IMG/VR virus record: IMGVR_UViG_3300030328_003747
Location: 41,084 to 105,083 of that record
Source of the DNA: a virus
Length of the DNA stretch: 64,000 bases
Direction: 5' to 3' (one strand)
Each line of letters begins with the position of its first letter. Within the stretch, counting starts at the first letter, position 1. Shown here piece after piece: positions 17,401 to 22,757 of this stretch. Made by a program: the position numbers and the translations under genes. The notes beneath the pieces are model-generated. The model did not search any database. It was not told the DNA's origin and saw nothing but the letters and a program-made list of their open reading frames with translations.

Positions 17401-17665
17401 AACAGAAATAGGTCGTGGTGTAAGAGAAGTTTCTGAAACTGCAAGAGAAGAACTAGACAAGAATATTCAAACTTTAAATCAAAATGAAGTTGATGACGAT
17501 CAATTGCAAAGCATAATTAATCAGGCTAAAAAATCTGTTCGATCACCTTCAACCATACAACTACCTACCGTTAAACCTTTAACAACCAATCTTAATCAAG
17601 GTAGCCTATCTAATGATCCTAGTGTTAGGGCAGCTATTTTAACTGGCGGTCAATCAATAGTATAA
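14441..17665 (+). CDS. Large internal virion / ejection protein
   Basis: 1074 aa, helical with Gly/Ala hydrophobic patches; last gene of the cluster. Confidence 0.6.
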   Translation: MPIYNVQINPQHSVQVEADSEEEARAKVELDIKATAARRAAVPYLDEIMFDYETGVRDKSIRRRLAIADNPLEREGTAEKIFGKDGFTYNSRGQLAVTPAGLVRIGEEPDYITLTDGSKLLLNRIVDEDSFNLTDGDLADFTGIAGPVLGAVLALTPQARVLSLVSKLTKLFSNKPTRINRIIASGIGTGGGKGVEEFVELEMGLQMQSAEEIRNLLAFETTLGAGAQGIGELLGVGYHLLLGKNAPFDNLRLYRQATQGRNLDDVMKLDLKLGREATEKEINQAVKDGIIKVYAEKGLPSQGAFNKQLPGKVQSLAEQVLGNTRVEESKKYLLRSMTELFARLNKESVDGQSLTSLLKRYQGKTAMSPEQKGLLDKSVSAQLAKVKTSEVQTIQSIEKLFEDVMEDFTLMGINRSPITLGKVGEEIRDALQKAKAGVDKNLADKYRIVDLELRSLKEGVVNKQIGEQIVRPRLDNARKIIDDYVNTNYAARINIGDAVDVNSDPVAYLRAIIQRMDDGVENIGMEGGRDFTLVGLRNALSTLKEERRLTMSDSFLTKITDDVIKELQGIFDDMADPTILKRAAPNLNALETQKISRAADLLQDANLSAQKYLAPFDNAKLMKIKAEGKYGAYDPLEIYESAVLNGKTRDLRDIFQAVRNYDDYIKTTAPTGLKAVNELQLRNNLKQKLISDAFQDSFDAATDTVDFAKFTTYLKNFDRKSPGKLREIFANEALGSENFLRVLDQINKLKPNLKPAEITKLITQFTKSKVPGGLTETATGKAFLEGLKELAEAKSKTASFEGNLIIRKLPEATTEEVVSKIFTPQGASNIKLIRETVGEESFKEIQNNAMNKILQRAIDFDGITKKGDITKIFQADKFNNILRSYGDETLEAMFGKDIAIGLKNYGKTIDIMTRGEVGRGGAAGTLIAAAIAINAFNPALWPTIAGLAVLRTAFQTPFILKMMARTDKSAGVQLVEIFERMFRLYGLTEIGRGVREVSETAREELDKNIQTLNQNEVDDDQLQSIINQAKKSVRSPSTIQLPTVKPLTTNLNQGSLSNDPSVRAAILTGGQSIV

Positions 17666-19404
17666 ATATTAAGTTTTTTAGACTTACCTTTCACTTCTAT
17701 ACTGTCTAATCTTTTAAGAGGATTTTTTAATTTTGTGCCTAATAATTTAGCTGCTGTTGACTCTCCTATTAATAAATCAGTACCTACGGCTTTAGTTGCT
17801 GACTCTAATCTTGCTGCGGTATTTACAGAGTCTCCTATAGCAGTATAATCGAAGCGTGAATCGCTACCCATATTACCTACAACAGCTTGCCCAGAATTTA
17901 AACCGATACCAATTTCAATACCTAACTTTGCTTCTTTTATGTCGTGTCTTATCTGAAGAGCTGTTTTTATAGCTAACTCTTCATGATTCTCTTGATCTAA
18001 TGGTGCATTAAATATTGCCATCATCGCATCACCAATATACTTATCCACCATACCGCCATTTTTTTGAACAGCATTAGCTTGTATGGTTAAAGCTGCATTC
18101 ATAATTTTTGCAACTTCTTTAGGTGGTAACACTTCTGATAAGGCAGTAAATCCTCTAACATCTGTAAATAAAAATGTGCAATATCTTTTTTCTCCACCTA
18201 GTTTTAATAACTCAGGATTATCTTGCAATCTTTTAACTTGTCTAGGATCTAGATAATGCTCAAACTGTTTTTTAATTTGTTGGCGCAATTTATATTGTTT
18301 TCTAAAGTTTAGGTAGTAAGCCACACTAGCAGTAACGAATTCTGCTATTAAAGTGTAGCTAAAATCAATTAAAATGCCTCTATTTATCATATAAAGCCCT
18401 ACAAGCCCCGTAGAGACAAATATGCCACTACCTAATATGATAGACCAAAAAATACCAAGATATGAGCTTACAACCCAAATAAGAAAGACACAAAATCCTA
18501 AAATTAAGAATTCTGCACCCAAGTGCCAATCTGGTATTCTTGGGCTGTCTTGAATTAGAATTGACTCAGATAATGCTGCTTGAATTTTGTGAGGTTCGAG
18601 TAAACCGACAGGAGTTGCAAGTGTTGGCATAATTCCAATTGCATTTACTCCAACAAATACAAACTTACCTTCAACATTCATTTCTTTTAATGTTGTTTCT
18701 GGTGTGTCTACCCAACTAATCCATTTCCTTCCTAGTGAGTCGGTAGGGACTGGTGGAATACCACGAACTGTTATTTCTGATATTCCATTTGCATTTGTTT
18801 TAATAATGTAAGTGTTAGATCCAGTTAAAGACTTTAATACTTGAGTACCAAAACTTGGCACCCAACCGTCTGGTATTTCATATAGTAGTGGTAATCTTCT
18901 TACCAAATTATCAACATCAACTGGTGCAGATACTACACCCTCTAAAACAGATTCTCTTATACCTTTTATATTTGGTAGGTGTCCTGGCAACCTGATACCT
19001 GAAACATCTTCTCCTAAAATTACAGTACCAGTTGGAAGTGGGTATTTTTCGTTATCGTAAGAAAAGGTGGCAACTACTGTATTTGGGGATTTCTGAATTG
19101 CGAGAATATATTCTTCGTCGCCACCAAACCTGTCTTTATCAACAAAGCTTATTACCCATCCTACACCAATAGCACCATTTCTTACAAGATCTCTTTGAAT
19201 TTCTGCTAACCTATCTCTAGGAAAAGGCCAACCCCCTTCTCTTTGCACATCCTCTTCTGTAATGTTTAAAATAACAAAATTACCTGTTGGTTCTTTTTTA
19301 GGGACCAAGTAATCAAATGTTTTTAGTTTAAGTATTTCTAGTGGAGCAACCTGGAATATTAAAGGAAGCGCCAGTATAGCAAATATAAGTAAAAACTTTT
19401 TCAT
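17650..19404 (-). CDS. CHASE2-domain class III adenylate cyclase
   Basis: N-terminal TM, CHASE2 (GGWPFPR, DVDNLVRRLPL, GKFVFVG), three TM helices, cyclase motifs FTDVRGFT, DKYIGDAMMAIF, DYTAIGDSVNTAARLE. Confidence 0.93.
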   Translation of the reverse strand: MKKFLLIFAILALPLIFQVAPLEILKLKTFDYLVPKKEPTGNFVILNITEEDVQREGGWPFPRDRLAEIQRDLVRNGAIGVGWVISFVDKDRFGGDEEYILAIQKSPNTVVATFSYDNEKYPLPTGTVILGEDVSGIRLPGHLPNIKGIRESVLEGVVSAPVDVDNLVRRLPLLYEIPDGWVPSFGTQVLKSLTGSNTYIIKTNANGISEITVRGIPPVPTDSLGRKWISWVDTPETTLKEMNVEGKFVFVGVNAIGIMPTLATPVGLLEPHKIQAALSESILIQDSPRIPDWHLGAEFLILGFCVFLIWVVSSYLGIFWSIILGSGIFVSTGLVGLYMINRGILIDFSYTLIAEFVTASVAYYLNFRKQYKLRQQIKKQFEHYLDPRQVKRLQDNPELLKLGGEKRYCTFLFTDVRGFTALSEVLPPKEVAKIMNAALTIQANAVQKNGGMVDKYIGDAMMAIFNAPLDQENHEELAIKTALQIRHDIKEAKLGIEIGIGLNSGQAVVGNMGSDSRFDYTAIGDSVNTAARLESATKAVGTDLLIGESTAAKLLGTKLKNPLKRLDSIEVKGKSKKLNIYTID

Positions 19405-21984: not shown

Positions 21985-22426
21985 CTGTAAGTGTATTATA
22001 TATTGTTAGAGTTATATAAACACCGTCAGATGTCCAAGATATTAAATTATCGAACAAAGTAAACTCGCCTTGAGTTGCTGGATCTTCTCCAAAAAGCTGA
22101 TCAACCAATTGTCTTGATAATTGAGCGTATATCCTAGACTCGAAATTTCTTAAGAACCTGGCTAAAGTAGTGTTCTCTGCATCTCTTTCTAGTTCTTCTT
22201 GAAGGGCTTTTATTTCAGCTTCTAATGCTTCTCTCCTAGTGTACTCTTGCTGATCAATAGTAAGGTAATGAGCAGATGTGCCTACACCACTAAAAGAAGG
22301 GTTTTTAAATTGAAATTTAATTTCATCAGAGTAGAGAGGAAGTGCAAGAAGTGGGACTAAGATAATAGCACAACCTCTCTTTTGATGTCTCTTATAGTAT
22401 TCTTTACTAATCTTTTCTTTGGTCAT
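21938..22426 (-). CDS. csgF: Curli assembly protein CsgF-like
   Basis: Signal peptide then IKFQFKNPSFSG, matching the CsgF N-terminal FQFRNPNFGG motif; ESRIYAQLSRQLVDQLFG. Confidence 0.85.
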   Translation of the reverse strand: MTKEKISKEYYKRHQKRGCAIILVPLLALPLYSDEIKFQFKNPSFSGVGTSAHYLTIDQQEYTRREALEAEIKALQEELERDAENTTLARFLRNFESRIYAQLSRQLVDQLFGEDPATQGEFTLFDNLISWTSDGVYITLTIYNTLTDETTEITIPIGDFGF

Positions 22427-22757
22427 CCCTGTCTGCCTTAGCTATTTTATTGCTATCAATAAGTTGTGGAACACCTAATATAGTTTTTATTAAAGTGTCC
22501 TGTCTAATAATTTCATTATCAAGACTTCTTATTCTGTCTATTAATGCTACTAGTATACCGTGTTGTGAGTCAAGCTTTGTGCCTAGCCTTTGTTCCATAG
22601 CGGTTATTTGTTCTGCTACTTTTTCATCAACTACATCCAGCTTGTTTTCCATTCCATCAACAATTCTCATTATCAGCTTATATATAAACCAACCTAATCC
22701 TAAAGCTGCCGCAATAGGAAATCCGACTTGTTGAATTATGGTTACTATTTCTTCCAT
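22407..22757 (-). CDS. Small membrane protein (GFPI motif, one TM plus coiled coil)
   Basis: IQQVGFPIAAALGLGWFIY; overlaps csgF start. Confidence 0.65.
   Translation of the reverse strand: MEEIVTIIQQVGFPIAAALGLGWFIYKLIMRIVDGMENKLDVVDEKVAEQITAMEQRLGTKLDSQHGILVALIDRIRSLDNEIIRQDTLIKTILGVPQLIDSNKIAKADRDDQRKD

Follow-up and report, generated by a model that had tools for sequence, protein, structure and literature searches.

We analyzed a 64,000-nucleotide window of the IMG/VR virus record IMGVR_UViG_3300030328_003747 (positions 41,084 to 105,083 of that record), in which six minus-strand open reading frames (ORFs) at window positions 17650-22757 encode a curli export set, a FecR-domain protein and a CHASE2 adenylate cyclase. 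Together the six genes are an intact example of the viral type VIII secretion (curli) region that others have described in pelagiphages, and the block itself is not new. We consider it probable that the block is a phage-specific fusion of the curli export set with a FecR/CHASE2-cyclase cassette, in which the FecR protein would serve export and the cyclase would be an accessory sensor. We favor this scenario because the FecR/CHASE2-cyclase pair and csgFG lie apart in the Alphaproteobacteria sampled and because the cyclase is optional in phages. Our data add three points to the published picture: the FecR protein keeps closer company with the export set than with the cyclase; the pairing of FecR with a CHASE2 cyclase is common in Alphaproteobacteria as a cassette of its own, which phages have probably fused to curli genes; and the labels "histidine kinase" and "iron regulator", attached to two of the genes, appear to fail.

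The block opens with a gene for a small membrane protein of 116 aa, here TM116 (window 22407..22757, minus strand like the five genes after it), which belongs to no Pfam family. It continues with a 162-aa CsgF homolog (21938..22426; Pfam CsgF, 59.5 bits, E 4.8e-16, residues 30-156), a 279-aa CsgG homolog (21145..21984; Pfam CsgG, 157.7 bits, E 3e-46), a 238-aa curlin-like beta-solenoid (20425..21141; Pfam Curlin_rpt, 22.1 bits against a cut-off of 20.7), a 361-aa FecR-fold protein (19401..20486; Pfam FecR, 50.8 bits, E 2.4e-13) and, last, a 584-aa protein that joins CHASE2 to a class III adenylate cyclase (17650..19404; Pfam CHASE2, 93 bits, E 2.7e-26; Guanylate_cyc, 70 bits, E 2e-19). Read from the cyclase upstream, the junctions are overlaps of 4 and 62 nucleotides, a 3-nucleotide gap, and overlaps of 47 and 20 nucleotides. 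CsgF, the curlin-like protein and the FecR-fold protein all carry signal-peptide-like N-termini. An initial annotation, made from the window sequence alone, gave the same coordinates and recognized a GFPI membrane protein, CsgF, CsgG, a curlin-like protein, FecR and a CHASE2-three-transmembrane-cyclase; Pfam and hydropathy agree with these identities, and the topology signals fit its statement that the set covers every layer of the cell envelope. The gene order recurs in phages HTVC008M and Melnitz, in 7 of 8 loci from a genome collection and in 80 viral contigs, so the block is not a chance arrangement. In a scan of window 17000-24200, promoter-like sites numbered 25 where 28.4 were expected and terminator-like sites 5 where 3.5 were expected, and no regulatory site can be claimed there. 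Among public sequencing runs, none of RNA was listed as containing the stretch.

The pelagiphage type VIII secretion region was first noted by Zaragoza-Solas et al. 2020 (PMC7029224). That pelagimyophage paper and the Melnitz paper (PMC9004378) treat CsgG and CsgF only and nowhere mention a cyclase. The initial annotation knew of no description of the full module in a phage, a claim that is overturned by Wittmers et al. 2022 (PMC9599517), who report the whole string from both myophages and HTVC023P-type podophages, counting FecR, the cyclase and a "histidine kinase" upstream among its genes. They also give its global distribution and its expression in metatranscriptomes and find CsgG, CsgF, FecR and the cyclase to have alphaproteobacterial affinities. 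The window block follows this viral system in its order (small "HK" gene, CsgF, CsgG, curlin-like protein, FecR, cyclase) and in having no CsgC, CsgD or CsgE. In contrast to the myophage copies, its FecR gene is followed by the cyclase with no further curlin-like gene in between: HTVC008M (KC465899 7562-13807) and Melnitz (MZ577097 50731-56876) each encode CsgF, CsgG, a curlin-repeat protein, FecR, a second curlin-repeat protein and the cyclase. The initial annotation was right that csgC, csgD, csgE and a phage receptor for cyclic AMP (cAMP) are absent; curli loci without the three csg genes are the alphaproteobacterial layout (PMC9599517).

We found 80 viral loci with a CsgG alignment and then scanned them with a profile of each gene, counting for FecR and for the cyclase those loci that had room for the gene. 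Downstream of the curlin-like gene FecR is present in 59/59, and a TM116 homolog, in one or two copies, precedes csgF in 64/65. The cyclase is present in 40/50 loci, in three of them on the other strand, and is absent from the remaining 10; two CheckV-complete genomes of 52 and 60 kb hold the export genes and FecR with no cyclase domain anywhere. FecR thus shows a tighter tie to the export set than to the cyclase, which is optional. The initial annotation had expected csgFG, FecR and the cyclase to be conserved together across viral and bacterial genomes, and among phages this co-conservation is indeed strong. A CsgG scan of the genome collection yielded 8 loci, 7 of which are phage-like contigs inside the bins of metagenome-assembled genomes (MAGs); the only bacterial-looking one (L013) has CsgG alone.

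In the Alphaproteobacteria sampled, the expectation of joint conservation breaks down. CHASE2 occurs in 63 of 151 sampled members of the class, and all 20 of the CHASE2-cyclase loci examined match the profile of the phage cyclase along their full length, at E 1e-112 to 1e-154. A FecR-domain ORF, confirmed by Pfam, lies within 6 kb of the cyclase in 9/20 of these loci, and in 4/20 it immediately precedes the cyclase in the same orientation, which is the phage arrangement; some of the FecR domains near bacterial CHASE2 cyclases belong to large cadherin/Big_9/RTX proteins. CsgG or CsgF was found at none of the 20. The converse survey recovered csgF in 7 of 401 Alphaproteobacteria, with csgG following in 7/7 and curlin-like ORFs nearby in 5. 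These loci resemble the phage block in having csgF then csgG, curlin-repeat proteins close by and no csgC, csgD or csgE, and differ from it in that none of the 7 has FecR or a CHASE2 cyclase within 10 kb.

Two bacterial systems with published phenotypes bear on the sensor half of the block. The clr-cyaD1-smc02177-smc02178 locus of Sinorhizobium meliloti, the only CHASE2 cyclase/FecR pair for which genetics exist, likewise sets a CHASE2 class III adenylate cyclase beside an exported FecR-domain protein; there the FecR-domain gene smc02177 is a target of cAMP and Clr and is dispensable for signal perception (PMC5498481). Unlike the phage block, this locus encodes the Crp-type receptor Clr alongside and has no curli genes, whereas in the phage FecR and the cyclase belong to one string of overlapping genes, with FecR upstream and no receptor visible. 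In the "BiofilmReg" operon of Burkholderia the gene for a periplasmic FecR-domain protein directly precedes that of a CHASE2 histidine kinase, as FecR precedes the CHASE2 cyclase in the phage, and the operon has a biofilm phenotype (PMC5192318); it departs from the phage block in its output through a histidine kinase and response regulator, in the LysM domain on its FecR protein and in its lack of a secretion pore. As a separate observation, a 1.2-Mb Pelagibacteraceae genome (G123) encodes CHASE2 fused to a SpoIIE/PP2C phosphatase (L122:5934-7982, plus strand) with a FecR ORF 1.3 kb downstream (L122:9263-10816, plus strand), so some SAR11 relatives own a FecR/CHASE2 pair with a non-cyclase output.

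The CsgG homolog is predicted to be an outer-membrane lipoprotein pore subunit: it has a lipobox, FSGC, at residues 15-18, matches the E. coli CsgG structures 3x2r, 4uv3 and 6l7a over residues 65-277 (phmmer, E 1e-40), and is 41% identical to the CsgG of HTVC008M and 37% identical to that of Melnitz. The constriction loop of E. coli CsgG includes Tyr51, Asn55 and Phe56. In the phmmer alignment only the Phe of these constriction positions is kept (A-S-F in the phage against S-N-F in E. coli), and the Tyr position is Ile in the phage, with a Tyr nearby. The CsgF homolog has a signal peptide ahead of a mature N-terminus that reads IKFQFKNPSFSG, and its Pfam match spans model positions 14-132 and so includes the barrel-binding N-terminus. 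This N-terminus (FQFKNPSFSG) appears to resemble the segment of E. coli CsgF that plugs the CsgG barrel (FQFRNPNFGG). A phmmer search for CsgF returned no PDB sequence match at E<=1.

The curlin-like protein has about eight G-[DSG]-S-N repeats and two C-terminal cysteines, C226 and C238, that are invariant in 43 phage homologs. One repeat scores as Curlin_rpt; the others use the G-[DSG]-S-N form, against a curlin consensus of S-x5-Q-x-G-x-G-N-x-A-x3-Q. Its AlphaFold2 (AF2) model is an all-beta solenoid with a predicted local distance difference test score of 85 and a predicted template modeling score of 0.81. The top match of this model in VIA is Pontibacter CsgA (8c50_A; Z 16.7, 20% identity), and Foldseek returned nothing against the PDB at E 0.001. 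The root mean square deviation of the CsgA match is 9.1 and SufD-type beta-helices tie with it, so the curlin assignment is not proven; that the protein is a secreted curlin subunit is plausible from its repeats and its model.

TM116, the product of the first gene of the block, has an N-terminal transmembrane (TM) helix by hydropathy (about residues 4-33) that carries a VGFPI motif and is followed by a coiled coil. It belongs to phrog_18771 (E 7e-17), whose PHROG function is given as unknown. The literature calls this gene a histidine kinase, a label that, judged by Pfam, does not seem to hold up: neither the window copy nor its paralog matches HisKA or HATPase_c at E up to 5, the only hits being sub-threshold ones to YvrJ and DUF7365, and 116 aa leave no room for the two kinase domains together. 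Its Atlas clusters are virus-only, and those with names that come closest (Holin_BhlA, Mu releasin) stay under a score of 0.9 and serve as leads only.

The FecR-fold protein, which has 4723 relatives in a large protein collection, comprises a signal-peptide-like N-terminus, a FecR beta-sandwich at about residues 53-200, an acidic disordered linker at about 204-284 and a small C-terminal beta domain at 285-358 in the AF2 model. Foldseek matches it to the C-terminal cell-surface signaling domain of PupR (6ovk_R, E 5e-5) and also to the BDI_1681 anti-sigma factor. The periplasmic-domain fold is thus common to this protein and the FecR/PupR anti-sigma regulators, but the phage protein departs from them in lacking both the N-terminal anti-sigma domain and the membrane anchor; Pfam, hydropathy and the AF2 model reveal no anti-sigma domain and no segment of TM strength. 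Without either, it cannot act like the FecR of the iron-citrate (Fec) system, and the label "iron regulator" is not justified. A complex prediction that paired FecR-fold residues 22-203 with CHASE2 residues 28-292, both supplied as alignments, returned a score of 0.00, an outcome of "no answer" that weighs neither way.

The cyclase begins with TM1 (residues 1-27), followed by a periplasmic CHASE2 domain (about 28-292), a hydrophobic block of about three TM segments (293-346) and a catalytic domain (408-583) that aligns to the structures of Cya2, OaPAC, bPAC and CyaB. The catalytic set is complete, with D415 and D459 at the metal positions, K455 and T521 at the adenine positions, N528 and R532 at the transition-state positions, and K572; all of these except T521 are invariant in 35 phage cyclase homologs. 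Lys and Thr at the substrate positions are the adenylate signature of class IIIb enzymes. On these residues the phage cyclase is predicted to be catalytically competent.

We infer from these features a division of labor within the block. The CsgG lipoprotein would form an outer-membrane pore, which CsgF would cap and at which it would nucleate the fiber, and the curlin-like beta-solenoid would be the exported subunit, building a fiber or coat on the infected cell. The sensor cassette would consist of an exported FecR-fold protein and a CHASE2 membrane adenylate cyclase whose gene comes immediately downstream. Once fused to the curli genes, the FecR-fold protein would have become a required companion of the export set, probably serving it as an accessory in the periplasm or after export, and the cyclase would have become a dispensable add-on, predicted to be competent, that where present may convert a periplasmic cue to cAMP.

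Several considerations weigh against this fusion scenario. The bacterial sample is small, consisting of 20 CHASE2-cyclase loci and 7 csgF loci from one class. The linkage of FecR to the export genes is strict in phages and not in bacteria, a pattern also expected of a single integrated machine. The identification of the exported subunit is borderline, since its one Pfam repeat barely exceeds the cut-off and its structural match is tied with unrelated beta-helices. The literature contains no experiment on any phage copy of the block. No cyclic nucleotide monophosphate (cNMP)-binding domain or cAMP receptor turned up in the whole 105-kb record, and just 3 of 61 Pelagibacteraceae genomes have a cNMP-binding domain, which together leave the output of the cyclase with no visible target. 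In one of the three, a MAG labeled Candidatus Pelagibacter, the only cNMP-binding domains are the N-termini of two type I secretion ABC exporters of about 1000 aa (L125:474-3395, minus strand; L126:2704-5691, plus strand), one of which adjoins an HlyD gene; these exporters are possible candidate targets of cAMP.

The most serious competitor of the fusion scenario is the one put forward in the initial annotation, in which the six proteins form one trans-envelope relay: the fiber or pore would report contact, polymerization or a superinfecting phage to FecR and thence to CHASE2, and the resulting cAMP would alter lysis timing, aggregation or exclusion. The parts it invokes and their linkage in phages are borne out here. 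The genes overlap and their order is kept across phage families; the FecR-fold protein has the PupR/FecR periplasmic fold, a fold that binds periplasmic domains of outer-membrane proteins (PMC5498481); FecR genes are enriched beside bacterial CHASE2 sensors, both the cyclases surveyed above and the histidine kinases of Burkholderia (PMC5192318); and the cyclase appears catalytically intact. A single machine is nevertheless hard to reconcile with a cyclase that 10 of the 50 loci lack, as do two complete genomes in which FecR and the export set are retained, with two halves that are unlinked in every bacterial locus sampled from either side, and with S. meliloti, where the FecR neighbor of CyaD1 is itself a target of cAMP and Clr and is not required for perception of the signal (PMC5498481). 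The lack of a cAMP receptor in the phage record, and the rarity of such receptors in Pelagibacteraceae, tell against it further. We regard the relay as somewhat unlikely.

A more ambitious form of the sensing idea, which we hold to be unlikely, is that the phage imports a complete envelope-spanning second-messenger sensor, in which the fiber and pore would gate the cyclase by way of the FecR-fold protein and cAMP would act on an unrecognized phage or host receptor. If this were true, cAMP would set aggregation, superinfection exclusion or lysis timing, and the sensor would be entering a host lineage that is mostly without recognizable cAMP signaling.

Two further proposals account for fewer of the genes in the block. 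Buchholz et al. 2022 proposed for Melnitz, from structural modeling and synteny, that CsgG or CsgG/CsgF acts late in infection as a gated outer-membrane channel or pinholin-like element that would depolarize the envelope or open it (PMC9004378), and the small membrane proteins beside the pore would then belong to a lysis set. One or two small TM proteins do lead the block, a membrane protein of family phrog_1544 flanks it, on either side, in 39 of the 80 viral loci, and the named Atlas clusters nearest to TM116 are the holin and releasin leads mentioned above. An outer-membrane pore, however, cannot depolarize the inner membrane; CsgF and a secreted curlin-like subunit are always in the block and would be superfluous to a lysis pore; FecR and the cyclase are left unexplained; and no lysin turned up beside the block, although no search was aimed at lysins. 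We therefore think a role in lysis timing improbable. The suggestion, raised in both pelagiphage papers (PMC7029224, PMC9599517) and in keeping with the absence of CsgE, that an ungated CsgG pore admits nutrients or iron chelates under an iron-citrate-type FecR regulator is very improbable, given a FecR protein that is a periplasmic fold with no cytoplasmic anti-sigma domain or anchor, a CsgE-less layout that is normal for Alphaproteobacteria, and a CsgF and secreted solenoid for which it offers no explanation.

Few accessory gene sets of SAR11-type phages are as widespread as this block, and published estimates give it about 0.1% of the viral proteins assembled from ocean viromes. The host has none of its parts, so an infected cell would gain a structure new to its surface and perhaps an additional messenger.

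The virus record from which the window is taken is 105,083 bp long and is rated 100% complete. Portals and major head proteins are each encoded twice in it, as are terminases, which belong to different families. Its final 89 bases duplicate positions 48670-48758 (88/89 identical). Joining record positions 102436-105083 to 48759-50598 yields one open tail-fiber frame of 1495 aa, and joining 47416-48669 to 92-577 likewise leaves the frame open. A complete genome with direct terminal repeats (G004, 54.7 kb) is collinear with positions 51.1-105 kb of the record, its primase, TerL and portal being 72%, 79% and 74% identical. From the doubled head and terminase genes, the collinearity with G004, the repeat at the end and the open re-joined frames, the record appears to be two phage genomes joined through a common tail-fiber segment. 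The idea of one 105-kb phage that carries two modules was rejected, as the record has two each of terminase, portal and major head protein and resolves into two genomes. Contigs of four runs, examined over window 23001-43000 for the continuity of the record, were pieces of 0.6-2.5 kb, none of which bridged far enough, and the slightly reduced cover past about 38340 does not count as evidence.

The junction falls at about position 48670 of the record, or about window 7587. The studied block lies in the second genome, phage B, which occupies window 7587-64000, is circular at about 56.3 kb and is of HTVC023P type; its TerL is 59-64% and its portal 45-51% identical to those of HTVC023P, HTVC027P and 023Pt_psg01. 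The carrier would accordingly be classed as an uncultured marine HTVC023P-type (SAR11-type) podophage of about 56 kb, a class that comes from the kinship of its phage genes. Phage A (about 48.6 kb, of which window 1-7586 is a part) encodes a DnaB helicase, a 2967-aa protein and a TerL that is only 36% identical to that of Roseobacter phage CRP-7. It has a six-gene block of its own (L005, record positions 1117-6141, plus strand), whose proteins are 46-66% identical to the window copy; this divergent block and the different terminase suggest that the block may occur in podophages outside the HTVC023P lineage as well.

The position of the block also varies between relatives. In G004 it sits among the tail genes and is co-oriented with them, whereas in phage B it is inverted and lies between a convergent 1074-aa virion gene and the primase gene. 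From this difference in place and orientation, the block appears to be a movable cassette. In phage B it is accompanied by a PDDEXK_14 nuclease gene (window 23401-23862) and by the phrog_1544 gene (22931..23404, minus strand), both of which G004 is without. The latter encodes a 157-aa membrane protein (PHROG E 1.7e-23) whose N-terminus is rich in glycine and whose C-terminal part has two TM segments (residues 101-150), and it probably stands outside the mechanism of the block. Its counterpart in phage A (L005:6150-6626, plus strand) is 95% identical in protein and 89% in DNA, compared with the far lower identities of the block proteins between the two phages, which suggests a recent exchange of the phrog_1544 gene alone. 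A 104-kb virus record (G001, loci L096-L101) was ruled out as a relative of the whole record analyzed here, with which it has in common only the curli-FecR-cyclase block and is otherwise unrelated; the sharing of the block alone is a further sign that it moves between phage lineages.

Two small genes near these features were also recorded. A very basic 51-aa ORF with a GTG start (window 22775-22930, minus strand) lies between the phrog_1544 gene and the TM116 gene. A 112-aa DUF7936 protein is encoded at window 10051-10389 (plus strand) in phage B and at L005:750-1088 (plus strand) in phage A, with 92% identity between the two, and its homolog in G004 is encoded just upstream of the block.

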